Below, piece after piece: positions 1-20,000 of a stretch of 20,000 nt of DNA. The stretch is from IMG/VR virus record IMGVR_UViG_3300028564_000919, one strand, 5' to 3'. Position 1 is the stretch's first letter; each line of letters starts with the position of its first letter. Below the pieces are notes generated by a model. It was not told the DNA's origin, searched no databases, and saw only the letters and a program-made list of their open reading frames with translations. The position numbers were made by a program, and so were the translations under genes. The DNA is from an uncultured virus (IMG/VR IMGVR_UViG_3300028564_000919) (taxonomy: Duplodnaviria; Heunggongvirae; Uroviricota; Caudoviricetes).

Positions 1-2
1 AA

Positions 3-1661
3 GAATTAGGTGTAGAGTATAAGAAGCTTGTATCTTATAATCAGGATATCTATAAGATTTCACACGATTTACAATTAGAGTCAAATATTACATGGAAGCA
101 GTTCTCCCAAATATATAGTGAAGCATATAAGAATGCTCGTTTAATGAATGACCAAATAGGTAAGAGTTTACATACAAGTAAAGAATTGATAGCAACAGTA
201 AGCCAATTATCTAAAGATGGTTGGAAAGATATAGACTCTTCAACATTAGTAAATATCTCTTCATCAGTATTAACACTAACAAGAACATTGGGGGTATTTC
301 CAGCTGAGCTTAATGATACATTTAGACAAGCATATAGACAATTTGGTGATAATACTGATAGATTTATAACTACATTGGGTGATAGATTAAATGCTTTTAG
401 TAAAACCTTTGGTATATCAGTAGGAATGCTTAGCTCAGTAGTAGCTGAAATGTCTGAGGCTACTTCCTTCTTATTAAGAAATAATATGGAAGCACAACTA
501 AAAGCCAATGCAAGTATAATGCAAGCAACAGCGTTAGCTGGAAGAGTAGGCTTAACATCAGGAACATTTATAGCTGATTTAGCGCAAACAGCTCAACTAG
601 GAACTGCTGAGCAGATGGCTAAGATATATCAAGGTGGAGCATTATTACAAGGGTTTAATACTGATGTATTTAGGGAACAATTGAGAGCACAAAATTATGA
701 TGAAGCAATTAAGGGATTATTTGCATCTATTAGTCAAACAATAAATGCAACACAAGAGCCTTATTTAAGAGCAGAGTATATTCAAAGAATTGGTGGAGCA
801 TTTGGATTATCCCAAGATGAGTTATTAAGAATAGCAACACATGGTGATAAATTAGAAGAATATGACCAAGATTTAAAAGACAAATTATTAAAGTCAACAG
901 ATTCAATGTTAGAAGAGTTGAAAGATTATAAAGTAGCTTGGGCTGACCGTTGGGATGCTTGGTTATCTAATACAGGTCTTTCAGAAATTATAGGTAAAAC
1001 ATATAATGAATTGGGACTTTATGGTTTGGGTGATAAATTAACACAGTTGACTAATATTACAAAATTAATATTAGCAGTAATTTCAATGCCTAAATTAAAA
1101 GGCGGAATATTTGGTCAAGATGCTAATGCAATGGGAGTATTACAAAAACTATATGGAGTAGATACTAATAGAGCAGCAATTGGAAAAGGACTAGGGACAG
1201 TAGCAGGATTAGGAATAGCAGCTTATAGTAATTATAAAATAGGTTCTGTCTTATCAAATCCTTATGCTTCTCAAAGTGATAGAGTATCCACAGGAATCGG
1301 GGGGACATTAGCTAGCGCCGGTGGTGGAGCATTAATTGGGGGTAAATTTGGGGGTGTTCCCGGAGCTATAATAGGTGGAGTAATTGGAGCAGGAGTTGGA
1401 ATTGCTAATTCAGTAATTTCAGATAGTAAACGTCAAGAGGCTATAACAGCAATCAATAAAGATATGGAAGAGACTAGATTATCAAGAACAAGACAACAAG
1501 TTGCTTCAACAAACCCTATTATAAATGCAATAGAAGATTTAAAAAATACAATGGTGGAAGTAGTTTATGATAACACAGATAAGACAATTGCAAATGAAAA
1601 TATAAATAGAGCTATAGATATAAATGAAAGAGCAAGATTAGCTATATATAGTGGGAAATAA
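3..1661 (+). CDS. Tape measure-like protein, C-terminal part (5'-truncated by window edge)
   Basis: The frame of ORF 144..1661 is open back to position 3 (ELGVEYKKLVSY...), so the real start lies upstream. Ala/Leu/Gln-rich helical sequence with a Gly-rich hydrophobic block (GGGALIGGKFGGVPGAIIGGVIGAGVG), directly upstream of baseplate genes. Confidence 0.65.
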   Translation, partial: ELGVEYKKLVSYNQDIYKISHDLQLESNITWKQFSQIYSEAYKNARLMNDQIGKSLHTSKELIATVSQLSKDGWKDIDSSTLVNISSSVLTLTRTLGVFPAELNDTFRQAYRQFGDNTDRFITTLGDRLNAFSKTFGISVGMLSSVVAEMSEATSFLLRNNMEAQLKANASIMQATALAGRVGLTSGTFIADLAQTAQLGTAEQMAKIYQGGALLQGFNTDVFREQLRAQNYDEAIKGLFASISQTINATQEPYLRAEYIQRIGGAFGLSQDELLRIATHGDKLEEYDQDLKDKLLKSTDSMLEELKDYKVAWADRWDAWLSNTGLSEIIGKTYNELGLYGLGDKLTQLTNITKLILAVISMPKLKGGIFGQDANAMGVLQKLYGVDTNRAAIGKGLGTVAGLGIAAYSNYKIGSVLSNPYASQSDRVSTGIGGTLASAGGGALIGGKFGGVPGAIIGGVIGAGVGIANSVISDSKRQEAITAINKDMEETRLSRTRQQVASTNPIINAIEDLKNTMVEVVYDNTDKTIANENINRAIDINERARLAIYSGK

Positions 1662-1697
1662 AAATTATTAAGAATTTAAACTATTAAAGGAGAAAGT

Positions 1698-4040
1698 ATG
1701 CCAGAAGAATTAAGAGTAGTAGATAATAAAACTTATATAGAATTAAAGTATGACCAAAGAGATTTGGATAACTTTAAACCTTATTCTTATAATCAAAAGA
1801 AGATTAAGATAAAGAATGAGGACCCCTTTAAAGATGGTATTCTTTTATATTTAGCAAATTTAAACACTATAGAGGATGATGGGATAGGAGGTTCTAGGAA
1901 AACATTTAAAAATGAAATCTCATTACATTTAATGCCAGATTCAATATCAGAGATATATACATATAATGTGGTTTCCCAATCACCATATGCTTCAATGAGA
2001 CCTTATTATTTTTATACATCTGGTAGTGAAAAACAAATTAGTTTTACATTTCAATTACATACAGATATGTTAGATACGATTGGAAGAAAAGAAGGTCATT
2101 ATTTTGGTAGTGATATAATTTATAAGGATTTAGATATTGATTATGGTGGATATAAAGAATTATATACAATGCTTCAAAATTATCCAGTAATTAACATGAT
2201 TCTTAATATGTCAAGACCAATATATAAATATAACAATAATAACCCGGAATTATATGAGCCCTTAGTATATTTCCAATTAGGTAATCAATTTGCAGGAATA
2301 GGTTATTTAAACTCAAGCTTTAAATTTTCAAAACCATATGATGTAGAGACAGGGACATATAAGATGATAACTATTTCAATGACTATAACATATATGGAAG
2401 AATTTGATATTTATAGTCAATATCAAGCTGACTTAATGACAATGGGGGAAAAGGAATCTTGGTATAGGATTTCTTATACTGATGAAAACGTAGGGTATGC
2501 AAATCAGATATCAGAAATTGCTAAGAATTTGGGTGTTATTAAATTAGAGGAAACACCAGAATCAAGATTAAGGGATAGTATGGTTGTTGATAACTTTTTA
2601 ATAAATTATTTTGAAAAAGGTAATGTAGTTCAAAATGTTATGTCATCAGAAAGATTACAAAAACTATTTAATGTAGAAAATATATTAGTTGACTTTGGAC
2701 AATATTCAACAAATAGGTATATGTCGGAAATATTATCAGATTATAAGAACATAATTCAGGATAAAATATTAAATCTAGAGAATTCATTTACTTTAAGTAG
2801 TGAGGATTTACCCGAAAAATATTATTTTATAGATTCAACGGTATCAAATTTTTATTTAGATTTATATAAGTTGATTATAGAATATTTGAATATAATTGCT
2901 GGTTTAATTATTTATGAGGAACCTAGTAAAAGGAAAGAAAGGTTAGAAAAAGTATTGAGTGAATTAAAAATATTAGAAACAAAACTAATAAGTGGAAGTT
3001 CACTGAAGACATATTTATATGATAACCCTAAAACAAGTATTGGTAAGAGGACTTCAAAAAGTGCTATATTTTTAAGACATTCATTAGATAATATAATCTC
3101 ATCGCTAAAAAACCAAATGCTTGGGAAAAAAGTTCAAAATAATATATGTTCAAGGGATAGTCAAATTGAATTAGAGTATACTTTTGATTTGGATAAACTT
3201 AGAAGATTTTACAATTTTATGACAACAACAAAGACAGGGAATTTTTATAAAACTAATCAAGAATTCCTAAATCATATTAAGTTAGAGACTCAAGGACAAG
3301 AGGATAATGTTATTATAATTACTGACTTAAACGGTAGAAAATTTCATTTAGCTTTAGATGAAGATATAGAATTAAAAGTAAATACAAAAAGATTATTATT
3401 TTCTGGTAATATTTCTATATCATCGGACTCTTTAAGGGAATTACAATTTTATGGGGATGATAAATGGGGTTATACAAAATATATAAAAATAAATAGTGCA
3501 TTAAACCATATAAAGATGTTGGTAGGAAAACAAACAACGAATCAAAATAATGAATTATTTTTTATAGATAAAGGTAAATCAAATAAGGTTGATAATCATG
3601 AGTGGACAACAGGATTACCGGGTGAGAAGACAAAGAATATTTGTTTAGCATTATATCTTTTTATTTTAATTGATTATTTTTATTTTGATGAAGAGGATTA
3701 TAATGATTTTCCAGAGGAATTTATATATCAAATTTACGAAGCAGCATATGAAGGAAACTTAAATAAACCGAATTATTTAAATAAAGCATTTAGTAGAAAA
3801 GTTGTTTTAAATGATAGGTGGTTACAATATACTAGTCACAAGGATCTTGATGCTTATTTTTCTTATAGTTATTTGTCAAACGTTAGTAATACAAAATCAG
3901 ATAATCATTATTATTATAGAATTATCTCCGAAGAAGAGCAAAGCGAAGTATTTAATTTAATTCATGATTTAAAAGATAGAATAAATTTAGCTTTACAAAT
4001 TTATACAAATATCTATACAACCGGGGGTATGACATCATAA
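1698..4040 (+). CDS. Tail tube initiator / baseplate tube-fold protein (T4 gp48/gp54- or CIS-tube-like N-terminal domain) with long C-terminal extension
   Basis: AAGGAG RBS before the ATG. N-terminal motifs MPDSISE...PYYFYTSGSEKQISFTFQL...PLVYFQLG fit tube-fold baseplate proteins. Paralogous to the next ORF and follows the tape measure gene. Confidence 0.55.
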   Translation: MPEELRVVDNKTYIELKYDQRDLDNFKPYSYNQKKIKIKNEDPFKDGILLYLANLNTIEDDGIGGSRKTFKNEISLHLMPDSISEIYTYNVVSQSPYASMRPYYFYTSGSEKQISFTFQLHTDMLDTIGRKEGHYFGSDIIYKDLDIDYGGYKELYTMLQNYPVINMILNMSRPIYKYNNNNPELYEPLVYFQLGNQFAGIGYLNSSFKFSKPYDVETGTYKMITISMTITYMEEFDIYSQYQADLMTMGEKESWYRISYTDENVGYANQISEIAKNLGVIKLEETPESRLRDSMVVDNFLINYFEKGNVVQNVMSSERLQKLFNVENILVDFGQYSTNRYMSEILSDYKNIIQDKILNLENSFTLSSEDLPEKYYFIDSTVSNFYLDLYKLIIEYLNIIAGLIIYEEPSKRKERLEKVLSELKILETKLISGSSLKTYLYDNPKTSIGKRTSKSAIFLRHSLDNIISSLKNQMLGKKVQNNICSRDSQIELEYTFDLDKLRRFYNFMTTTKTGNFYKTNQEFLNHIKLETQGQEDNVIIITDLNGRKFHLALDEDIELKVNTKRLLFSGNISISSDSLRELQFYGDDKWGYTKYIKINSALNHIKMLVGKQTTNQNNELFFIDKGKSNKVDNHEWTTGLPGEKTKNICLALYLFILIDYFYFDEEDYNDFPEEFIYQIYEAAYEGNLNKPNYLNKAFSRKVVLNDRWLQYTSHKDLDAYFSYSYLSNVSNTKSDNHYYYRIISEEEQSEVFNLIHDLKDRINLALQIYTNIYTTGGMTS

Positions 4041-4041
4041 T

Positions 4042-5655
4042 ATGGCAAGAATATATTTATTTGAAGTAGAAGATACTAGAGGGAAGATTCAACTAGTAGA
4101 ATATAACACTCAAACAGGATTAACAAAAATAGTTAATAGAACTGGTGAACAAACTATTAACCCTAAAGATGTAGGTATTACTACTGAAATACAAAACCAA
4201 CTTATAGTTAAATATGATATAGAAGATTATTTAAGAAATAATTATTTGAGATATAATAAGATTATAGAATGGGATGATACATGGACTAAATATACACCAT
4301 TGAGTGAAAGACCTAATGCATATAGGGATAGACATAGACTTGATTCAATACCGCTTCAATCAAAGTTAATTCAATCTCTTATTGATAAACAAAATATAGA
4401 TGATAATTTATATATTTATTTCTTAGTTGGATATAAAGATAATAATGGACAATTTCAACCAATCAAAAATTTCTTTAATGAACAAGGGAATATAAACTCT
4501 AAGAGTGGTTCTGGTTCTAATACATTTGATGGGGAAATAATGATACCAATGATACCAGATGAAATGGGGTATAATTATTCAGCTAATTTTTCTTCACAAC
4601 CAGTATTAGGTAGAGTATCCCCATTACATTTTTATAGTAGTGGTAGTAGTGAAGTAGTTTCATTTAGTGTAAAATTGAATGAGGACTTAATAAACTATAA
4701 AGGACATGGTATATATGCTTCTGATAAAGAGTGGATATCATTATCGGACTATGTAGAAAACATAAGAAGAATGTCTTACCCTGTAATTGATATAGATGGT
4801 AGAAAAATATTCCCTGTAGTTTATTTTCAACTAGGTTCTTTTGTTGCAAAGGAATGCCATGTAGAAACAACAGTTTCTTGGGAGAAGCCTATAAGGGACG
4901 GAAAATATACAGTAGTTAATTTGGGGTTCACAGTAACTATAGAAACAGGGAATGAGCAATTATTATCAACATCCGAGAAGTTTGAAATAGGTGGTGAAAT
5001 AGTGGAGGGACTTTCATCTACATATGGTAATATTTATTATGCAGATAAGGTTATAAGTGAGATATATGATATAGAGGGATTAACAATAAATAACCCAAAT
5101 TTATTTGTATCATTAAGACAAACTCAAGAACTAGCAAAATTGGGTATAGAAGCTGATAAAAGGTTTATAGATACAGTTGCTAAGAAGTTAGATAACATTT
5201 TTAGTGCATTTAACACAAAGATGTATGGTTCTGAGTATTCAAGAATAATAACAGAATTAAAAGAGGAAGTAAGAAATCTTGCTAGTGCTAGTAAAAAATT
5301 TGAAGAAACAGCTCAATCACTTACAAGCGAAGGGACTACTATTTATATGAAATATTTAGCTGAAGTAAGTAAAGAGACTAATCCAAATAAGAAAATAAGT
5401 TTTGGTGATTGGTTATTGAAACAGGATATGTCATTTAAAACTGAATCAGGGGTGGAATATCAAGTAACAAAGAATTGGTTATTTGAATTAGACCAACACA
5501 GTATAATGAAGAAGATAGATACTTTATTAGAATATTATACCGATGACCCTGAGAGTAGAAGAAGTAAAGCAGAAATAAGAGAAGAAATATTTCAATTATT
5601 AGCAGATATAATAGAGACATATAAGATGGGGGTTGGGTATTGTGCGAGTAGTTAA
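4042..5655 (+). CDS. Second tail tube initiator / tube-fold baseplate protein (paralog of 1698..4040)
   Basis: Motifs IPDEMGYNYSANFSSQPVLGRVSPLHFYSSGSSEVVSFSVKL...PVVYFQLG align by eye with the preceding ORF. Starts 1 nt after its stop. Confidence 0.55.
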   Translation: MARIYLFEVEDTRGKIQLVEYNTQTGLTKIVNRTGEQTINPKDVGITTEIQNQLIVKYDIEDYLRNNYLRYNKIIEWDDTWTKYTPLSERPNAYRDRHRLDSIPLQSKLIQSLIDKQNIDDNLYIYFLVGYKDNNGQFQPIKNFFNEQGNINSKSGSGSNTFDGEIMIPMIPDEMGYNYSANFSSQPVLGRVSPLHFYSSGSSEVVSFSVKLNEDLINYKGHGIYASDKEWISLSDYVENIRRMSYPVIDIDGRKIFPVVYFQLGSFVAKECHVETTVSWEKPIRDGKYTVVNLGFTVTIETGNEQLLSTSEKFEIGGEIVEGLSSTYGNIYYADKVISEIYDIEGLTINNPNLFVSLRQTQELAKLGIEADKRFIDTVAKKLDNIFSAFNTKMYGSEYSRIITELKEEVRNLASASKKFEETAQSLTSEGTTIYMKYLAEVSKETNPNKKISFGDWLLKQDMSFKTESGVEYQVTKNWLFELDQHSIMKKIDTLLEYYTDDPESRRSKAEIREEIFQLLADIIETYKMGVGYCASS

Positions 5656-6973
5656 TTTTAATTTAATTTTACCAAATAATAAAGTTTTGGATTTAAACAA
5701 CTCAGGGTTAATTCAAGCAAGGTTTAATAAGTATAAGTCAAGTGAAATGATAACTAATACTAATGTATTAACTGACTTGGAGATGAGTTTGTTTGATAAG
5801 ACAGGAACTGATTTATTATTAAAATTACAACAAGAGACTGGTTCATCAAAGCTAAGGTTTAATTATGGTTTTGATATAGAGCTTAGTGATGTATATGAGA
5901 TGACAATAACTAATATAGGAACTGAATATAGCCAAGGCTCAGCAATAGTAACTATAAGTGGAATAGGTAGTCAATATGGTATAAGATTTCCCGCAGAGTA
6001 TTATAAAGAGGGGACATCAATTAAAAGTATTATAAAGAAATTAGCTGATAGGAATGGTTGGTTATTAACAGATGAACCAGATAACCCAAAATTAAAGACA
6101 AAATTTATTGATGATATATATGATACTATTAAATTGCCAGAGCCGTTGATTAAATTAAATACTCAAACTGATATTCAATTTATTACAGAGAAATTAAAAC
6201 CAATCTTGGATGCAACAGCTGTAGAGTTATATTCACAGGATAGGAATTTAGATTTCTTTATAGTAAGTCTCCAAAATATCCCAACTAAGAGTAATACAAG
6301 GCAATTAGCATTAAAGGTTGAAAAGAATGACAAGAGGGCTACAACAAAAAGAATATGGCATTTTACATATGGATTTAGTCCTGATAGTAATATTATAAGA
6401 ATCAACCAACAAATAAACCAATCATTTTTAGTGGACGGTTTAAACTTAGTAATTCCTGCGGCAGAGGGGGAAGCTTTAATATCACAATTAAAAGATAAAT
6501 ACGGAAATTTATATCAATCAAAATATAAAGAAAGAGTAGATAGTATTATATATTCAAAGAAGGATATAATTAGTAAATGGTTGAAAGAATTAAATTTACC
6601 AGTATTAGATATAGAGCAATTTCAAATTAACTATCAATTTGTAGACGTAGATAGTTTAGGTAATAAAACTTTAGAGCAGATAGTATTAGACCAATTACAA
6701 AATGCATTAAGTATTGTTAATACTTTACAAATAACAATAATTGGTAACAATAAAATTGAAGGTGGGGATTTGATTGATTTACAAGTAGCGACAAGAATAA
6801 AATCAACTCAAGGGAATAGGAATACATATATATTTAAAAAGAATCCTTATTTAAGTAAACGTTGGAGGATAATAGGAATTACTGAAGACATATCAGTATC
6901 GGGGGGATATACAACAACATTGAACTTAGTAAGTGATGTAAGTTCTAAAGATTTAATGGTAAGAGTTTCCTAG
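5633..6973 (+). CDS. Baseplate hub protein (gp27/gpD/Mu gp44-like)
   Basis: Typical hub C-terminus LQITIIGNNKIEGGDLIDL...LSKRWRIIGITEDISVSGGYTTTLNL. Sits between tube initiators and spike. Start codon uncertain (TTG 5633 or GTG 5642). Confidence 0.7.
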   Translation: MGIVRVVNFNLILPNNKVLDLNNSGLIQARFNKYKSSEMITNTNVLTDLEMSLFDKTGTDLLLKLQQETGSSKLRFNYGFDIELSDVYEMTITNIGTEYSQGSAIVTISGIGSQYGIRFPAEYYKEGTSIKSIIKKLADRNGWLLTDEPDNPKLKTKFIDDIYDTIKLPEPLIKLNTQTDIQFITEKLKPILDATAVELYSQDRNLDFFIVSLQNIPTKSNTRQLALKVEKNDKRATTKRIWHFTYGFSPDSNIIRINQQINQSFLVDGLNLVIPAAEGEALISQLKDKYGNLYQSKYKERVDSIIYSKKDIISKWLKELNLPVLDIEQFQINYQFVDVDSLGNKTLEQIVLDQLQNALSIVNTLQITIIGNNKIEGGDLIDLQVATRIKSTQGNRNTYIFKKNPYLSKRWRIIGITEDISVSGGYTTTLNLVSDVSSKDLMVRVS

Positions 6974-6989
6974 ATTTTTTGAGGAAATA

Positions 6990-7003
6990 TGATATAATAT
7001 AAT
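6990..7003 (+). promoter_or_regulatory. Possible extended -10 promoter (TGnTATAAT) upstream of spike gene
   Basis: TGATATAAT at 6990-6998 with a second overlapping TATAAT at 6998-7003, in a 45-bp intergenic gap ahead of the GGGGGAAG RBS. No convincing -35, and the AT-rich background weakens the match. Confidence 0.35.
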
Positions 7004-7018
7004 ATAGGGGGAAGTAGA

Positions 7019-7450
7019 TTGAATAATAAGATAAGCACTAGCGATATATTTACTGGTTATGTAGTTGAAGTCATAAAAAATAAGGAGGGAAAACCTACAT
7101 TAGAATTGAGAGTAAGAATTCCATCAATTCATAATACTGGGTCTATAAGTAGGATTGAAGATAAGGATTTACCAATAGCAAAACCCCTGTTAATACCAAC
7201 GGCTGCGGTTAATTTAGAGTTATTTGAAGATTTCATTAAGAGTATTACAAAGGTATTTATTATATTTGAAGGGGGAAATTTAAACAAACCATTGTGGTTA
7301 GGGTTTAAAGGTGAGAATGAAATTTTTGGGATGCCAGAAGAAGATGAAATTGATTTATCTAAAATCCCAGAAATTTTCTATGTGACTGAGGAAGATAATT
7401 TAGAAGAAACAAAATATAAAGTTAAATATTTTTATATCATAGAAGAATAA
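7019..7450 (+). CDS. Baseplate spike N-terminal OB-fold protein (gp5/gpV-like), lacking a beta-helix
   Basis: FTGYVVEV...LRVRIPSIH...LPIAKP...VFIIFEGGNLNKPLWLG matches the gp5/VgrG OB-fold pattern (V.V.F..GD...P...G). TTG start with GGGGGAAG RBS, directly after the hub gene. Confidence 0.75.
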   Translation: MNNKISTSDIFTGYVVEVIKNKEGKPTLELRVRIPSIHNTGSISRIEDKDLPIAKPLLIPTAAVNLELFEDFIKSITKVFIIFEGGNLNKPLWLGFKGENEIFGMPEEDEIDLSKIPEIFYVTEEDNLEETKYKVKYFYIIEE

Positions 7451-7830: not shown

Positions 7831-10800
7831 ATGAAAATAAAATTCACAACTGAAAGTGGAGTAACTAAATATTTAAAGCTTGGGATATCTAGTGTATTAG
7901 GACTTCAAGATATTTTAGACACGAAGTCAGATACAGACCATATTCATAGTGAGTATGCTTTAACTACCCATAATCACGACACAGTATACTCTAAACTTAC
8001 ACACAACCACGATAGTAGTTATGCAGATATAAGCCATAATCACGACACAGTATATTCCGGGATAGGTCATAATCATTTAATGAGTGAAGTAACAGGGTTA
8101 CAAGCAGCACTTGATAATAAAGCAGCTTCAAACCACAATCACGATACAGTATATGCCGAGATAGGTCATAATCACGATACAGTATATGCGGATATAAGCC
8201 ATAATCATCCAATAAGTGAAGTAACAGGTTTACAAGCAGCACTAGATAATAAAGCAGCTTCCAACCATAATCACGATACAAGTTATGCGGATATAAGCCA
8301 TAATCATCCAATAAGTGAAGTAACAGGGTTACAAGCAGCACTTGATAATAAAGCAGCTTCCAACCATAATCACGATACAAGTTATGCGGATATAAGCCAT
8401 AATCACGATACAAGTTATGCAGATATAGACCATAATCATTCAATAAGTGAAGTAACAGGGTTACAAGCAGCACTTGATAATAAAGCAGCTTCAAACCATA
8501 ATCACGATACAAGTTATGCGGATATAAGCCATAATCACGATACAAGTTATGCAGATATAAACCATAATCATCCAATAAGTGAAGTAACAGGGTTACAAGC
8601 AGCACTTGATAATAAAGCAGCTTCAAACCACAATCATGATACAAGTTATGCAGATATAAGCCACAATCACGATACAAGTTATGCGGATATAAGCCACAAT
8701 CACGATACAAGTTATGCGGATATAAGCCATAATCATCCAATAAGTGAAGTAACAGGTTTACAAGCAGCACTAGATAATAAAGCAGCTTCCAACCATAATC
8801 ACGATACAAGTTATGCGGATATAAGCCATAATCACGATACAAGTTATGCGGATATAAGCCATAATCACGATACAAGTTATGCAGATATAGAACACACACA
8901 CGTAGGAAGCCAAATCTATGTAAAGAGTGAAGAATTAGGAACGACGTTAAATGATTGGACGACATCTATTGAAAACGAGTTAAGCGACCTTGCAGGAATA
9001 AATCATAATCACGATACAACTTACGAACCAATTATAAGCACAAAAGGAACAGCGTTTAATAAAGATTTTGGAACAACTGCTGGAACAATAGCAGAGGGTA
9101 ATCACGTTCATAGTGGAGATTATCATTTAAAACAACCTTTAGGAGTTCCTAGAGTAAACTATGGTGACCCTTTAATAACTGAGATGGCTTTGTTTGATAA
9201 TGAATATACTAATAGAACTGAGTTTTTTCCGATAGATAGATTAAAGATAGAGAAGAATATAACTGGCTATAGTTGGACCGATATTACAACTACTTTTAAT
9301 GAAACTAGAAGAAAACAGTTAGTAGGTGGTGATGTATATTATGGTATAAGCTTTAAAGATGAATGTGACACAACTAAGGTAAGAATTTATTTTGACGCAG
9401 CTGTTGATTATAACCCTTTAAATACCTTAGGTGATTTATATATGGGTTTAGACGCAGGATATCACCAATTTACAGCAAAGATTATAAAGAAGAAAAATGC
9501 TTCTTCAAACTGGGAATATCATACAAATAGTGAAATTCAATTAGCAACAAATGGAGATATTGCACACCTATATTTACCTTTTAGTAGTTTACTATGGCAA
9601 AATAATTATAACAATTATAGATATATAGGTGTAGAGCTAAAGATTTTTTGGGACCATAATTATGGCAGTTGGTCAAGATTTTATATATACAATCTTCAAT
9701 TTTGGGGAGTAGGTGGAGGTGAAGGTAGAAAGAGAACAATATACACAACAGATGAAAATAAGAATGTTAGATTTCCAGGAGATATTTATTCTGCGAATGA
9801 AGTCTATGCAAAAAGTATAGGGGATAGTGGTAAAGAAATACCTTTACTAGAAGGTTTACACCAAGCTACTAATATAATGATGAAAATTGTAACTGGTGGG
9901 GCTTCCCAAACTGGCTATGACTTAACTATAACTACTAAAAAAGAAAGAATTTACTGGGCGGGGGGAAGTTATACAGACTACTATGATAATTTTTATTATA
10001 GGGTTAATGGTAATAGTACTTACACAGCTATTACTTATCCTGTTACTAATCAAGTAATCCCTAACGTTATAATGGTATCGTTTTATTATGATTTAGCTGA
10101 ACCAGGTTATGAGGGTGGTTATCATACTATTACAGGTAATTATACTACTATTGGTGATTACTATTGGCTAGATGGACCAATTTCTATTACTTTCCAAAGC
10201 TCATATCCTTGCTTTGTTAAAGGAACTAAAATCACACTTGCTGATATGACTTATAAAAATGTGGAAGATATTACTTATGATGATGAATTACTTGTTTGGG
10301 ACTTTGATAAAGGGAAATTTACTTCAGCTAAACCTATCTGGATATTAAAACCACAGAAAGCACCAGCTTACAATAAATTAGTATTTAGTGATGGTAGTGA
10401 ATTAAGAACAGTAAATCAACACCGTATCTTTAATGCAGAAGAGGGTAAGTTCACATACCCTATGACAGAAGACACACCTATTGGAACAATTACTTTCAAT
10501 GATAAAGGTGAACTTATAGCTTTAGTTTCAAAAGAAGTAGTTGAGGAAGAAGTAGAATACTATAACATTATTACTGATTACCACATAAACTTATTTGCTT
10601 CATCGATTCTAACTTCTTGTCGTTTATCTAATTTATACCCAATTAAAGATATGAAGTATATAAAAGATGATAGAGAACTACATAGCCCAGAGATATTTAA
10701 TGAAGTTAGTCCTAAATGGGTTAGAGGACTTCGTTTACTAGAACAACCACTTGAAGTTAATAGAGAAAATGCAGTTAAGTTTGATAACTCATTGGTTGAC

Positions 10801-10833
10801 TATGTTAAGCGATTAGAAAGCACTAAATTATAA
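7831..10833 (+). CDS. Tail fibre-like protein with His-rich (HxH) repeats and C-terminal Hint autoprocessing domain
   Basis: Repeats HNHDTSYADIS and HNHPISEVTGLQAALDNKAASN (phage tail repeat-like), motif FGTTAGTIAEGNH, aromatic-rich putative receptor-binding region, then CFVKGTKITLAD...H...YNI...LFASSILTSC Hint blocks at aa 794-930. Confidence 0.8.
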   Translation: MKIKFTTESGVTKYLKLGISSVLGLQDILDTKSDTDHIHSEYALTTHNHDTVYSKLTHNHDSSYADISHNHDTVYSGIGHNHLMSEVTGLQAALDNKAASNHNHDTVYAEIGHNHDTVYADISHNHPISEVTGLQAALDNKAASNHNHDTSYADISHNHPISEVTGLQAALDNKAASNHNHDTSYADISHNHDTSYADIDHNHSISEVTGLQAALDNKAASNHNHDTSYADISHNHDTSYADINHNHPISEVTGLQAALDNKAASNHNHDTSYADISHNHDTSYADISHNHDTSYADISHNHPISEVTGLQAALDNKAASNHNHDTSYADISHNHDTSYADISHNHDTSYADIEHTHVGSQIYVKSEELGTTLNDWTTSIENELSDLAGINHNHDTTYEPIISTKGTAFNKDFGTTAGTIAEGNHVHSGDYHLKQPLGVPRVNYGDPLITEMALFDNEYTNRTEFFPIDRLKIEKNITGYSWTDITTTFNETRRKQLVGGDVYYGISFKDECDTTKVRIYFDAAVDYNPLNTLGDLYMGLDAGYHQFTAKIIKKKNASSNWEYHTNSEIQLATNGDIAHLYLPFSSLLWQNNYNNYRYIGVELKIFWDHNYGSWSRFYIYNLQFWGVGGGEGRKRTIYTTDENKNVRFPGDIYSANEVYAKSIGDSGKEIPLLEGLHQATNIMMKIVTGGASQTGYDLTITTKKERIYWAGGSYTDYYDNFYYRVNGNSTYTAITYPVTNQVIPNVIMVSFYYDLAEPGYEGGYHTITGNYTTIGDYYWLDGPISITFQSSYPCFVKGTKITLADMTYKNVEDITYDDELLVWDFDKGKFTSAKPIWILKPQKAPAYNKLVFSDGSELRTVNQHRIFNAEEGKFTYPMTEDTPIGTITFNDKGELIALVSKEVVEEEVEYYNIITDYHINLFASSILTSCRLSNLYPIKDMKYIKDDRELHSPEIFNEVSPKWVRGLRLLEQPLEVNRENAVKFDNSLVDYVKRLESTKL
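7939..8901 (+). repeat. Coding tandem array of 33-bp (HNHDTSYADIS) and 66-bp (HNHPISEVTGLQAALDNKAASN) units
   Basis: Six 66-bp units followed by 2, 1, 2, 2, 3 and 3 of the 33-bp units. Near-identical at DNA level and in frame. Confidence 0.95.
10210..10620 (+). other. Hint (Hedgehog/intein-like) domain within fibre gene
   Basis: Block A CFVKGTKITLADMTYKNVEDI, block B-like LRTVNQHRIF, block F-like EYYNII, terminal LFASSILTSC. About 137 aa with no endonuclease insert. Confidence 0.85.
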
Positions 10834-10846
10834 GGGGGGAAATAAA

Positions 10847-11266
10847 ATGATTTACATTATTGAGGGAAATACTGGTGCTGGCAAAGCTACTTTTGCTAAT
10901 TCTTTAAAAGGGTTTGAAGTAAGAAAAACCAACTTAAACACTCTTGAAGAAATAAAAGAAACTTTATCAAAAATTAAAGGCGACGTTGTATTTGATAGAA
11001 TGTTTGGTATAAGGTGGATTGATAAGCCAGATAAAGAAATCTTGGAATTGAATGAATACCTAAAAACTGTGCCTGATTTAGTTTGCTATAAGTTTATGGT
11101 AGATAAAGAAACAAGTTTAGAAAGATTTATTCAAAAAATAAAGGGTAGCTCTGAAAGAGAAATACATAAACAAGAAGAAGATATATTCAAAAAGAGAGTT
11201 GATAGGCAGTATGAAGGTTTTATCAGGTTGTTTTCTTTAATGGATGTATTTGTAGAAAAGGAATAA
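10847..11266 (+). CDS. Small P-loop kinase, thymidylate/NMP kinase-like
   Basis: IIEGNTGAGKATF Walker A, VVFDR motif, lid-like SLERF. GGGGG RBS. Confidence 0.65.
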   Translation: MIYIIEGNTGAGKATFANSLKGFEVRKTNLNTLEEIKETLSKIKGDVVFDRMFGIRWIDKPDKEILELNEYLKTVPDLVCYKFMVDKETSLERFIQKIKGSSEREIHKQEEDIFKKRVDRQYEGFIRLFSLMDVFVEKE

Positions 11267-11267
11267 T

Positions 11268-11675
11268 ATGAAGTTTATTATAGGTTTAGTTGGTAGTGGT
11301 AAGACAACTCTATATAGAAGACTAAATGAGAATAAAATCTTAAGCGCAGTAGAGATTGAATTACCGCAGTCTTGTTTAAAAGATGAAAAATTAAAAGTAA
11401 GCTTATTTGATTTATATTATAAAAACCCTAATATAGACTGTATCATCTCGCATCCTTATGCATTACCTGAAGACTTTTGGGGTAGAATTGGGGAAAAAGA
11501 TGAAGTATACTATCTAGATATCCCATTAAAACAAAGAATAAAAAGGATTAAGAAGAGAAGTAAAAAGTTGAAAGTTAAAGAAAATATATTCCCAAAAGAA
11601 TTTTTAGAAAAAGAAGAAGAGGACTTTATTAAGTTTAAGAGAAATCAAAATATAGCTAAACTAAATGATATATAA
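11268..11675 (+). CDS. Small P-loop kinase, NMP/shikimate kinase-fold
   Basis: FIIGLVGSGKTT Walker A and YLDIPLKQRIKRIKKR lid motif. Starts 1 nt after the previous stop, with an AAGGA RBS. Confidence 0.65.
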   Translation: MKFIIGLVGSGKTTLYRRLNENKILSAVEIELPQSCLKDEKLKVSLFDLYYKNPNIDCIISHPYALPEDFWGRIGEKDEVYYLDIPLKQRIKRIKKRSKKLKVKENIFPKEFLEKEEEDFIKFKRNQNIAKLNDI

Positions 11676-11965: not shown

Positions 11966-12100
11966 TTGAGTTTTAAGGAATACGATAAAAAAGTTTTAGA
12001 CAAAGAGTTAGATGATTTTTTAGGAAGTGTTATCTATGTAGCACCTAACGATACGATAGAAAACTACCAGCAAATACCAGAACCAGAACAAGAGGAATAA
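11966..12100 (+). CDS. Small acidic hypothetical protein (44 aa, MSFKEYDKKVLDKELDDFLGSVIYVAPND...)
   Basis: TTG start after purine-rich GGAGAG/AAGGA. Open to TAA 12098-12100 with codon usage like its neighbours. Below the size of ORFs in the supplied track. Confidence 0.45.
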   Translation: MSFKEYDKKVLDKELDDFLGSVIYVAPNDTIENYQQIPEPEQEE

Positions 12101-12159
12101 TGCTTTATGATTAGGTGGCTAATAAGTTATTTAATAACTTTTTTCAAAGGGGGTAAAGA

Positions 12160-15847: not shown

Positions 15848-18800
15848 ATGGATTTAGATATTTTTAAAAGTAGGATAGAGCATTTAAGTCAGGTTGAAAA
15901 AGATATGTTTGATTTCATTATAAATTCTTTCCCCGAAAATATTTTAATGGATGACTTCGGTGAATATAGAGAGGACATATTGAGTCTTTTAGTATTAATA
16001 TCAAAGGCAGTGGGTAAGGGAAAAGAATTAGTAGACAATGTTGCTTTAGCTCAATCACTGGAAGAAACTATATATGCAATATATGCTAATTATGATAATG
16101 TAGTTTTAAAAAGACAATTAACTAATTTACTTATATTACAATTAGTAGATACTAATATTCCTTATTTTATGAATATGAATGAGAGTGAATTAAATTCATT
16201 ATTGGATTCATTTCAAAATACTGAAGAGAATAAATCAAATAATGCAAAGTTAGTTTATTTAATCAATAGCTTAATTTCAACATCTAAAATAAATAAAGGA
16301 ACTAAGAAATCCCTATCATCATTATTATCCTTGATGTTAACAACGAGATATGGTAAGACTAATTTTAGAATAGACTTTGATTATGATGAATATGAAGGAA
16401 ATAGAATTTTAGTAGTAGTCCCGGAAGGAAGCACAGAGAACTGGGATGATTTATTGAAAGACCCAACATCCCCAGAAGTTTATAAAGAAATGAAGGATGA
16501 AATATTTAATTTAATTCATCAAAATAGGTCTCTTGGTTCATATTATAAATTATATAAGACACCAGAATATTATAAAGCATATTTCTATTATGAGAACAAT
16601 TTACTAAGAACATTTAATATCTTTAGAGATAATGACCCAAGTGTTAGTGATATACAGGGAAGTTTAACTGTATCCGATGTGGAATTTTTGGGTGATATAG
16701 TTGAAGACTTAAGACCACAAGACCAAGGATTTGTTGGTTATTGGGCATATGGTTCTAATATCTCAGAGCAAACAATAAAGATAGAAGAGGATGGAACTGA
16801 TGTTACAGTAACAGATACAGAAGGATTAACAACAACTGTTTCTAGTGATATCTCATTATATGTAAGATTACTTGGAGCATTTAGAACTATAAATTTCTAT
16901 GGTGACTCCGCAACTTATTATGTTAAGAGAGGCACAAGTATAAATGGTGGTTTATATAGTGATTCTTCTTTTACAACATTAGTAGATATTCCAGAAGCTA
17001 CTGGTTCTACACCAGAACATTATACTTATACTTGGACGAATAATAATCAAACACCTTTTGATTTTAATACTAAGATATATACAAATCAAAACTTTGTAGT
17101 ATTATCAACTCCAAATGTATACCAAGTTAAGTTTTATGATGGTGAAACATTACTTAGCACACAGAATGTTACATATAATACGACAGTAATAGAACCAACA
17201 GGTCCTTCAAAGACTGGTTATACATTTGATGATTGGTATACAAGTTCTAGTTTTACAACAATATTTGATTTTACAACACTATATACAAAATTATCAAGTC
17301 CTACAACACTTCCTGCAAACACCGCTTGGGGTTGTGCTTTTAATCATAACGGAACAAGACTTGCAGTTGCACATTCCTCTTCATCATATATAACAATATA
17401 TGACACAACTACAACACCATATACAAAATTATCAAATCCTACAACACTTCCTGCAGGCAACGCTTTTGGTTGTGCATTTAATCATGACGGAACAAGACTT
17501 GCAGTTGCACATTACTCATCACCATATATAACAATATATGACACAACTACAACACCATATACAAAATTATCAGATCCTACAACACTTCCTGCAAACAACG
17601 CTTGGGGTTGTGCATTTAATCATGACGGAACAAGACTTGCAGTTGCACATGGCTCATCACCATATATAACAATATATGACACAACTACAACACCATATAC
17701 AAAATTATCAAATCCTACAACACTTCCTCCAAGCGACGCTTATGGTTGTGCATTTAATCATGACGGAACAAGACTTGCAGTTGCATATTACTTATCACCA
17801 TATATAACAATATATGACACAACTACAACACCTGTTCATACAATAACTAACGTAGCATATAATAGTTTAATTTCAGACCCTAGGATAACACCAACAAGAC
17901 AATATTATATATTTAAGGGTTGGAACTTTAACTTTAGCACTACAAGAATTACTCAAGATACAAATATTTATGGAACTTGGGAATTAGAGAAATATATAGT
18001 AAGATTTATGAATGGTGTTAATGTATATAGCACAGTTAGTGTAACTAGGGGAAACAAAGTAACAAGACCAACAACAGACCCTACAAAGACAGGATATACG
18101 TTTGATAAATGGAGAATAACAAGTGAAACAGGTCAAGAATTTGATTTTAACAACACTTATATTTATGGCCCAATGGATATTTACGCAAGTTACACAATTA
18201 ACACATATACAGTTAAGTTCTACTCAGAAGGAGCTCTATATGAAACACAAACAGTTAATTATGGAGCTAAAGCTATTAAGCCAACAACTGACCCAACAAA
18301 GTCAAATTATCAGTTTACAAGTTGGAGAATAGGAAGTGCCTCTGGAAGTGCTTATAATTTTAATACTGCAGTTTCAAGCAATTTAAACTTATATGCTAAC
18401 TTCACAATTAACACATATACAGTTAAGTTCTGGGCAAGACCAGATTTAGTATATAGCACACAAACAATAGAGCATGGGGGAGATGCAACTAATCCAGGAA
18501 CTCCGAATGTAGTAGTAACAGGTTATGATTTTGATGGTTGGGATGGGACGTATACAAATGTGACTTCTAATTTAGATATTCATGCTAAATGGAAAATTAA
18601 GACATACACAGTTAAGTTTTATAATTACTCAGGAGGAACATTACTTAGCACACAAACTATAGATTATGGTAATGATGCAACAGCTCCAACACAACCTACA
18701 AGAACAGGGTATAGTTGGGAAGGTTGGGATAAAGCTTATACTAATATAACACAAGATACTAACATTTATGGAACTTGGGAAATTAACAAATATACAGTTA

Positions 18801-19999
18801 AGTTCTATGATTATGTTGGGGGAAGCACAACTCCACTTAAGACACAATTAGTTCCATATCAAAGTAATGCCACTCCACCTACTAATCCAACAAGACAAGG
18901 TTATATCTTTAAAGGTTGGAGTGGAACTTATACTAATATAACACAAGATACTAACATTTATGGAACTTGGGCAGTAGCGTATGAAGTAATCTTAAATGGT
19001 AATGGTGGTAAATATGGAACTGCCGATACTAAGACATTATATGTAGAGTATAACACACCAATAACAACAATTACTAATAATCCAGCAAATATACCGACAA
19101 GGGAGCATTACATATTTAATAAGTATTATGGTACTCCAGAAGTAACTACTAAACACAGTAATACTGCTGATGTTAGTATACTAGAGTTTATAAGAGAGTT
19201 TATATTAGGATTTCCAGAGACTATTAGTCAGATGGAAAGTTGGTCAAGACCTTATTGTTATTCAATAATAAGAGATAGATTATCACTTAATACAACTTTC
19301 AAAGAATATAGTATACTAAACACTTCGGGTGGAAACTGGAATATATCATTAGCTAATAGTAGTTATACAGTATATGATGGGGATAATTATAAACAAGATG
19401 GTAGTATTAGATTTTGGACTAACTCTGCAAATATAAATGCTTTAAAGAACACAAGTTATTACAATAGTTCTACAAACTCTTTAGTAATTCCAAACGGATA
19501 CTATTTAGAAATAATAGCAGCATCAGATGAAACTTCCGGACCAAACTCAAATGACTTTAGATTTAGTTTTGCCGTAGAAGAATTACAAGAAATTACAGTA
19601 ATTACAGAAGACATAACTTTATATGCAAACTATAAGTTTGACCCTAAAAATGTTAGCATATTAGGTAGTGCAACATATAACAGCGCAACATACCAACCAT
19701 TTGAATATGTAAGTGTTAGCGGAGTAACTTCTTTAATTCCAGAAAGTATTACACCGGATTTAACAATCACTAGTAATATACCTAGTAGAGAAAAAGTTAA
19801 CAAGTATTTTAAAGGAGAAAGATATTCAGGAAAGATAACTAATAACTTTATTAGCTCTAATCCAGACCTATCCGAGAGACAAAATTCTTCAGAGATTACT
19901 TATTTAATTCAAGGTGATAATATAACAAATAGGATATTAACTATAGCTCACAGTTCTTCCCTTGTTTGGAAAGATACAGGAATGTTAGGACCTGATCAA
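15848..19999 (+). CDS. Large baseplate wedge (gp7/gpI-like N-terminus)-adhesin fusion with InlB B-like repeats and beta-propeller repeats, 3'-truncated
   Basis: AAGGAG RBS, ATG 15848, open by manual translation to the window end (>1380 codons). KGTKKSL motif near 16295 and position directly after gp6. Repeats of type YTVKF...P..PT(K/R)TGY.F.GW...ITQDTNIYGTW. Confidence 0.85.
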   Translation, partial: MDLDIFKSRIEHLSQVEKDMFDFIINSFPENILMDDFGEYREDILSLLVLISKAVGKGKELVDNVALAQSLEETIYAIYANYDNVVLKRQLTNLLILQLVDTNIPYFMNMNESELNSLLDSFQNTEENKSNNAKLVYLINSLISTSKINKGTKKSLSSLLSLMLTTRYGKTNFRIDFDYDEYEGNRILVVVPEGSTENWDDLLKDPTSPEVYKEMKDEIFNLIHQNRSLGSYYKLYKTPEYYKAYFYYENNLLRTFNIFRDNDPSVSDIQGSLTVSDVEFLGDIVEDLRPQDQGFVGYWAYGSNISEQTIKIEEDGTDVTVTDTEGLTTTVSSDISLYVRLLGAFRTINFYGDSATYYVKRGTSINGGLYSDSSFTTLVDIPEATGSTPEHYTYTWTNNNQTPFDFNTKIYTNQNFVVLSTPNVYQVKFYDGETLLSTQNVTYNTTVIEPTGPSKTGYTFDDWYTSSSFTTIFDFTTLYTKLSSPTTLPANTAWGCAFNHNGTRLAVAHSSSSYITIYDTTTTPYTKLSNPTTLPAGNAFGCAFNHDGTRLAVAHYSSPYITIYDTTTTPYTKLSDPTTLPANNAWGCAFNHDGTRLAVAHGSSPYITIYDTTTTPYTKLSNPTTLPPSDAYGCAFNHDGTRLAVAYYLSPYITIYDTTTTPVHTITNVAYNSLISDPRITPTRQYYIFKGWNFNFSTTRITQDTNIYGTWELEKYIVRFMNGVNVYSTVSVTRGNKVTRPTTDPTKTGYTFDKWRITSETGQEFDFNNTYIYGPMDIYASYTINTYTVKFYSEGALYETQTVNYGAKAIKPTTDPTKSNYQFTSWRIGSASGSAYNFNTAVSSNLNLYANFTINTYTVKFWARPDLVYSTQTIEHGGDATNPGTPNVVVTGYDFDGWDGTYTNVTSNLDIHAKWKIKTYTVKFYNYSGGTLLSTQTIDYGNDATAPTQPTRTGYSWEGWDKAYTNITQDTNIYGTWEINKYTVKFYDYVGGSTTPLKTQLVPYQSNATPPTNPTRQGYIFKGWSGTYTNITQDTNIYGTWAVAYEVILNGNGGKYGTADTKTLYVEYNTPITTITNNPANIPTREHYIFNKYYGTPEVTTKHSNTADVSILEFIREFILGFPETISQMESWSRPYCYSIIRDRLSLNTTFKEYSILNTSGGNWNISLANSSYTVYDGDNYKQDGSIRFWTNSANINALKNTSYYNSSTNSLVIPNGYYLEIIAASDETSGPNSNDFRFSFAVEELQEITVITEDITLYANYKFDPKNVSILGSATYNSATYQPFEYVSVSGVTSLIPESITPDLTITSNIPSREKVNKYFKGERYSGKITNNFISSNPDLSERQNSSEITYLIQGDNITNRILTIAHSSSLVWKDTGMLGPDQ
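17120..19635 (+). repeat. Array of about 8 InlB B / Listeria-Bacteroides-like repeat domains (about 60-70 aa each)
   Basis: Recurrent Y(T/Q)VKF starts near 17120, 17993, 18206, 18416, 18605, 18791 and 18980, with GY.F.GW cores and IY(G/A).W/Y ends. Confidence 0.8.
17281..17832 (+). repeat. Four tandem 138-bp (46-aa) beta-propeller blade-like repeats
   Basis: Units start at 17281, 17419, 17557 and 17695. Consensus YTKLSxPTTLPAxxAxGCAFNHDGTRLAVAHxSSPYITIYDTTTTP (WD40/YVTN-like AF..DG..LAV...I.IYD). Confidence 0.95.
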
Positions 20000-20000
20000 G

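Follow-up and report, generated by a model that had tools for sequence, protein, structure and literature searches.

The window, a 20,000-nucleotide stretch of DNA from an uncultured virus, holds the tail module of a contractile-tailed phage, with genes for a tape measure, a tail fibre and gp53-like and gp25-like baseplate proteins. The nearest record (G001; 19% complete) overlaps it at 98% identity over window positions 1-7260 and contributes genes for capsid, sheath and tube. After the gp53-like and gp25-like genes comes a large plus-strand ORF (15848..20000, open at the window end) made up of a wedge-like N-terminal domain, Listeria-Bacteroides repeats (PF09479, six stretches) and a blade array, behind which the rest of the Listeria-Bacteroides repeats continue as a putative stalk (17834..18990, +). 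The N-terminal domain (approximately residues 1-248; 15848..16591, +) is probably a baseplate wedge subunit, judging from gene order and from structural alignment, in which 7 of 50 VIA-align rows paired it with contractile baseplate or needle chains over 141-168 residues. The initial annotation had called the ORF a baseplate protein, and gene order together with these full-length matches agrees with it; because the Z scores are only middling (5.3-5.8), we regard this identity as likely rather than proven. Searches of PHROGs, Pfam, PDB sequences and Foldseek gave no match to the domain, the Atlas gave one lead at 0.88, and viral contigs held no usable relatives of the domain, the upstream ORF or P0121, a relative of the ORF with repeats that the window lacks. 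An Rfam scan of the window found nothing. At least half of the region's words were present in 20 of the 24 runs listed, from 17 studies labelled as soil, wastewater, sludge, digester, biogas fermenter or plain metagenome. DUF285 and Listeria-Bacteroides repeats under translation code 11 presumably indicate a low-GC Bacilli or Acholeplasma-like host.

Between 17272 and 17832, Tandem Repeats Finder detected a 138-bp unit in 4.1 copies (93% matches, 0 indels), and in-frame alignment confirmed four head-to-tail units that differ from each other at 6-14 positions per 138 bases. The initial annotation had set the array at 17281..17832; the array itself stands, with its frame shifted by one base, since the coding frame opens at 17282 and the units end at 17833. 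The array thus comprises four WD40-like propeller blades of 46 codons each (17282..17833, +), starting at 17282, 17420, 17558 and 17696. Each blade has two variable loops, which in blade 1 are codons 12-16 (17315..17329, +), covering the d-a loop and the start of strand a, and codons 32-33 (17375..17380, +) in the b-c turn; both recur every 138 bp. Recounting over the original coordinates reproduced the 17 variable columns, 11 of them with A, the codon lists given for codons 6, 13, 14, 16, 23 and 32, and the mere two synonymous changes (codons 19 and 33, plus the last base when read in frame). Counted in frame, there are 18 variable columns, 12 with A, the added column being that last base. 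The proposal that A-richness of these columns signals a diversity-generating retroelement (DGR) did not hold up: a two-allele column here contains A with probability 0.65, which makes at least 11 of 17 a chance result (P = 0.62). The remark that C-ending codons are otherwise scarce was borne out, as four of the five C-ending consensus codons fall among the 10 variable codons (P = 0.006). Summed depth over the array far exceeds that of its flanks (four runs, contigs), a figure that pools the unit from several phages and does not give copy number. Position 17729 is G in all four runs, again in pooled contigs and so not a strain call.

The fold was assessed on an AlphaFold2 model of the seven-blade protein of a related locus, L002 (4-row alignment; mean pLDDT 63, with blocks of 59-90 over the repeats). 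The model contains seven repeated sheets and matches seven-bladed WD40/WRAP propellers (2ymu, E 3.7e-15; 7big, TM 0.92 by target), in keeping with the propeller blades first proposed. The Pfam WD40 family was reached only at its cut-off, in L018. In the model, codons 14-16 begin strand a and codons 32-33 end strand b, and because the arrangement is an antiparallel hairpin, the two groups should lie on one face. Repeats of the Podospora protein HET-E are under diversifying selection at codons 7/9 (d-a loop) and 25/27 (b-c turn) (PMC1805685, PMC12222747), and the spacing 14/16/32 found here corresponds to codons 7/9/25 in HET-E, in the same loops (PMC1805685). Strand order and the match to HET-E positions are both consistent with the single variable propeller face that the initial annotation had suggested. 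We infer that the two loops probably bind the host surface. The four blades in the window do not close a seven-bladed ring.

The blade unit is not confined to this phage. It recurs at 86-96% DNA identity in L002 and 14 metagenome loci. The phages from which these loci come have different gene sets, and in them the blades make up a tail gene of their own, which usually contains seven blades and has capping ends. Fusions to baseplate J or tail-collar domains are seen in some homologues. As an exact motif, the unit had no match in 185,579 species genomes, and annotated phages yielded one 40% match, to a 'WD40 repeat protein'. Other patches of the window also occur in the same phages (9982-11643 at 77%, 8856-8973 at 96% and 12010-12150 at 83-97%), and the phages sharing the blade pool probably have one host. 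Across 37 complete blades, mean distance is 9.7 bases within arrays and 10.0 between them, and each window blade lies 4-7 bases from a blade of another phage, compared with 6-14 from its own neighbours. Site counts were made on 57 of 60 blades in 13 arrays, including the window; three blades cut by contig ends were left out, as were the arrays of L001, L006, L007, L008 and L011 (the same array as L002) and of L021 (nearly that of L013). Four insertion-bearing loops and, in one L010 blade, a frameshifted tail were also excluded.

In these blades, variation is concentrated at a few codons. Codon 32 takes 17 codons (13 residues), codon 33 takes 14 and codon 16 takes 10, and the 39 cold codons together hold two synonymous variants. 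Pairwise codon differences amount to 9,173 non-synonymous and 544 synonymous (raw counts). Third positions are unchanged at codons 12, 15, 17, 31 and 34, and at codon 11 are changed in 1 of 57 blades. Extra synonymous codons number 12 at hot codons and 2 elsewhere; those at codons 16, 32 and 33 can all be reached through non-synonymous steps, and the codon sets at 12, 16, 32 and 33 are joined by single non-synonymous steps. At codons 13, 14 and 32, C never occupies the first position, and Y, S, D, G and N are favored among the residues. Among 119 homologues, 25 reach an internal identity of at least 70%, and within these the same columns (32, 16, 14, 33, 12 and 13) are the most variable; a GC-rich phage and bacterial copies with synonymous divergence likewise vary at the hot columns. 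Loop 1 occurs in 38 distinct versions among 53 blades and loop 2 in 29 among 56. In-frame insertions, apparently from slippage of a 6-base word, are found in four loops. Each of the 28 marker pairs has all four gametes; linkage is already low at 1-6 bp (mean r2 0.09) and does not fall off significantly with distance.

One explanation for such a spectrum is recent amplification of a single blade, followed by relaxed constraint at its surface loops without positive selection. New propellers do keep arising from single blades, some of them without synonymous changes (bioRxiv 10.1101/2022.03.13.484165), and the insert described below is dispensable. Neutral drift, however, cannot yield 17 codons at one site alongside 2 changes in 1,284 site-copies at four-fold sites outside codon 33, and we consider this explanation improbable. 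The combination of repeat homogenization and positive selection, mentioned in the initial annotation as an alternative, fits both the site spectrum and the equal distances within and between arrays.

The explanation favored in the initial annotation was that a DGR, acting in cis or in trans, diversifies each blade from one template repeat. The array does resemble targets of DGRs of the Bordetella BPP-1 type in its variable first and second codon positions, its NNC/NNT codons (prevailing at codons 6, 13, 14, 16, 23 and 32) and its location in a putative phage binding protein. A is seen in some blade at 21 of the 28 sites with a minor count of at least 2, the residue spectrum at hot codons is similar to the output of the reverse transcriptase (RT) on AAC (PMC12875486), and DGRs acting in trans exist (PMC10907252). 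A DGR miscopies template adenines and then overwrites its target (PMC10907252); since the BPP-1 enzyme in cells mutates about 31% per adenine (PMC12875486), silent adenines should be scrambled. Instead, with codon 33 excluded, a change is seen in 1 of 1,167 third-position adenines (upper 95% bound 0.4%), in 0 of 267 third-position adenines in AAC context and in 0 of 53 copies of the adenine lying between hot sites 12.1 and 13.1. Of the 53 consensus adenines, 41 are invariant. Conversely, A is absent from seven variable sites, including one where 18 of 53 blades have minor alleles, and the in-frame loop insertions in four blades also speak against a DGR. Nor does one template account for every blade: with AAY at seven candidate codons, the best template fits 5 of 57 blades but not one of the window's four, and a template given A at every site where A was ever seen accounts for 22 of 57. 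Further unlike DGR targets, the variable region is a mid-protein propeller, not a C-terminal CLec or Ig-like domain.

The check proposed in the initial annotation, a search for a second copy of the unit and a DGR-clade RT, found neither in the records searched, whose incompleteness counts somewhat in favor of a DGR. No RT was found in the 14 window ORFs, in a motif scan of 44 loci, or in five virus records (47-82% complete), G001 and two MAGs; no template repeat occurred outside the arrays in the window, G001-G003, G006 or 45 loci (incomplete records); and a Pfam scan of the 14 window ORFs returned no Avd family. Overall, DGR action is not supported and is largely refuted by the invariant adenines, and we give it very little credence. 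Silent adenines between hot codons may serve as a simple control that separates arrays of this kind from true DGR targets.

An as yet undescribed targeted process that works without RT might also rewrite only the two loops, for example through short single-stranded donors and a phage recombinase, with selection acting afterwards. The weak linkage at 1-6 bp, the many loop versions, the synonymous excess and C-ending bias at hot codons, and a scaffold that is near-frozen across unrelated phages would all suit such a process. Against it, the silent bases beside the hot sites are fixed at the codons given above, variation keeps to codon boundaries as expected of selection, the variants form stepwise networks, and no donor copies were found outside the arrays. 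We think this process unlikely. A broader version, to which we assign similarly low odds, would have a communal blade pool among the phages of one host, with the two binding loops rewritten by such an RT-free targeted process that spares the bases beside them, and arrays spreading via microhomology to further structural genes. Its sharing and insertion parts are largely shown by the data, and targeted rewriting is its candidate part; if true, unrelated phages would hold a mobile binding repertoire in common.

The array is a strain-variable insert. Its left junction (17273..17279, +) is a stretch of 7 bases inside a Listeria-Bacteroides repeat, and the same bases are present at every blade's end. 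The right junction (17825..17833, +) consists of 9 shared bases, and across it some 880 codons of Listeria-Bacteroides repeat sequence are absent from the window. The ORF belongs to a cluster of 14 members; all 11 that span the site lack blades and have the Listeria-Bacteroides repeat intact, and their identity over residues 1-477 is 98.1-99.6%. Downstream of the array, identity among cluster members is 95-98%. One further member, P0133, joins two blades to the downstream half of the Listeria-Bacteroides repeat and looks chimeric. The left junction is bridged, by 29-87 bases, in single contigs of all four runs compared, which come from four studies; the inserted allele therefore exists in nature. 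That the alleles differ by gain of the array, and not by its loss, is the direction that we infer.

An assembly chimera with a co-occurring phage could also have put the array into this ORF. The 11 blade-free members, the chimera-like passage of P0133 through the repeat, and the right junction of the window, which was not seen in the listed pieces of the four runs, would fit such an error. However, the left junction is carried by single contigs in four studies, and in the same four runs the array end continues into the repeats that are missing from the window. Moreover, junctions sharing 7-9 bases are too short for a k-mer assembler to join. A chimera is thus very improbable as the source of the array. 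The right junction is a separate matter. In the four runs, position 17825 is preceded by other sequence, and the approximately 880 residues that the window lacks after the array are present in P0121 and its cluster; the gap is either a private deletion or an assembly error and may have removed blades. Because these residues are missing, the window's count of four blades is unreliable. A second junction, between a blade and an unrelated gene, also with 9 shared bases, is found in L013/L021. Both of those contigs (L013 1-2311; L021 1-2328) start and finish in blades, possibly as a small circle or a tandem duplication, and there a blade is joined to the end of the upstream 1,349-residue gene.

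Our preferred explanation, which we hold with a probability of roughly three in four, is a pool of near-identical WD40-like blades shaped by inter-blade recombination and by diversifying selection at two loops, from which the array in this ORF would be a recent insert. Under this model, several unrelated phages carry a WD40-like propeller module with near-identical blades on their tails. Recombination among blades, both inside one phage and from phage to phage, would keep scaffold DNA uniform and reshuffle the loops, and diversifying selection would let new residues persist only in the two loops of a single face. Whole blades would then have recombined into a Listeria-Bacteroides repeat of the baseplate protein at microhomologies of 7-9 bases. 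Recombination is supported by the equality of within-array and between-array distances, the loop versions shared between arrays and the four-gamete results. Phage single-strand annealing proteins efficiently recombine diverged DNA (PMC2327257). RecT was found in one of four records tested, which belongs to one of the phages sharing patches, and was absent from the fragment of this phage; for that reason the recombination route is put forward only as probable.

Several observations fit selection and recombination less well. The weak linkage at 1-6 bp means that recurrent mutation or very fine shuffling would be needed. The enrichment of C-ending codons (P = 0.006), the 12 extra synonymous codons at hot codons against 2 elsewhere, the C-free first positions at codons 13, 14 and 32, and a Y/S/D/G/N spectrum like that of the DGR enzyme on AAC (PMC12875486) also count against them. 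Apparent recombination may in addition be inflated, because short-read assemblies can scramble repeats of this kind (PMC12222747).

Propellers with many near-repeats of one blade have been described from all kingdoms and from viruses as well (bioRxiv 10.1101/2022.03.13.484165). Besides DGRs, three known systems stand closest to this array. The first is the HNWD family of Podospora anserina (HET-D, HET-E, as well as HET-R), which likewise has near-identical WD40-type blades exchanged within and between loci (PMC1805685, PMC12222747). The 'high internal conservation' WD40 repeats of HET-E have blades more than 80% identical, with a diversified d-a loop and b-c turn on one face. HNWD proteins are NACHT immune receptors, whereas the blades here are part of a phage tail protein, come from a pool that extends over genomes of unrelated phages, and form an array that is present or absent as an insert in another repeat protein. 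No NACHT (STAND) domain was found in the ORF, L014, L018 or P0121. The array may work like the HET-E sensor, with a frozen scaffold and a selected face, yet it is not an NLR and, on the tests run, not a DGR target. The second system is WRAP (Npun_R6612; PDB 2ymu and 7big), which gave the best structural matches and has near-identical blades with few or no synonymous changes. WRAP homologues are described as independent amplifications; in contrast, the blades here resemble one another as closely across phages as inside one array, and hypervariability is concentrated. The third, the YVTN propeller of an archaeal surface-layer protein (1l0q), is the best sequence match among solved structures (E 6e-12) but is a cellular protein with blades far less alike. 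In the literature searched, which largely consisted of sources outside subscription journals, we found no paper on such a pattern in phage tails. What this array adds is the blade pool common to unrelated phages together with presence/absence insertion. These phages would thereby have a route to DGR-like receptor diversity without reverse transcriptase, a HET-E-type design on phage tails, with one blade pool across unrelated phages caught entering a new gene.

Other blade-bearing loci vary in architecture. In L014 (3-2756) and P0047, blades are fused to DUF285/BspA-type leucine-rich repeats. L016 (614-1531) and P0047 contain capped genes with four blades only, which may oligomerise or represent collapsed assemblies. 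The translations of the ends of L017 and the start of P0131 resemble sequencing-adapter read-through, and we take these to be artefactual assembly ends. L023/L024, a contig of a Bdellovibrionales MAG, carries several older, synonymously diverged propellers of the same family in which the same residues vary.

Elsewhere in the window, the tail fibre (7831-10833) contains His-rich repeats of 33/99/132 bp (PF12789); it matches L013 at 90-98% identity in parts and L009/L010 at 77% in its C-terminal half. Two small P-loop kinase-like genes follow directly (10847-11675), and in L009/L010 two such genes immediately precede the propeller gene. The 140-bp patch at 12010-12150 resembles sequence that lies immediately behind the propeller gene in seven other loci; in the window it ends a short ORF and supplies the first codons of a foreign gene, which is then cut off before the gp53-like gene. 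At the far end, the C-terminal part of the large ORF (19082-19900) differs by tens of substitutions between runs, and the N-terminal part is nearly identical.
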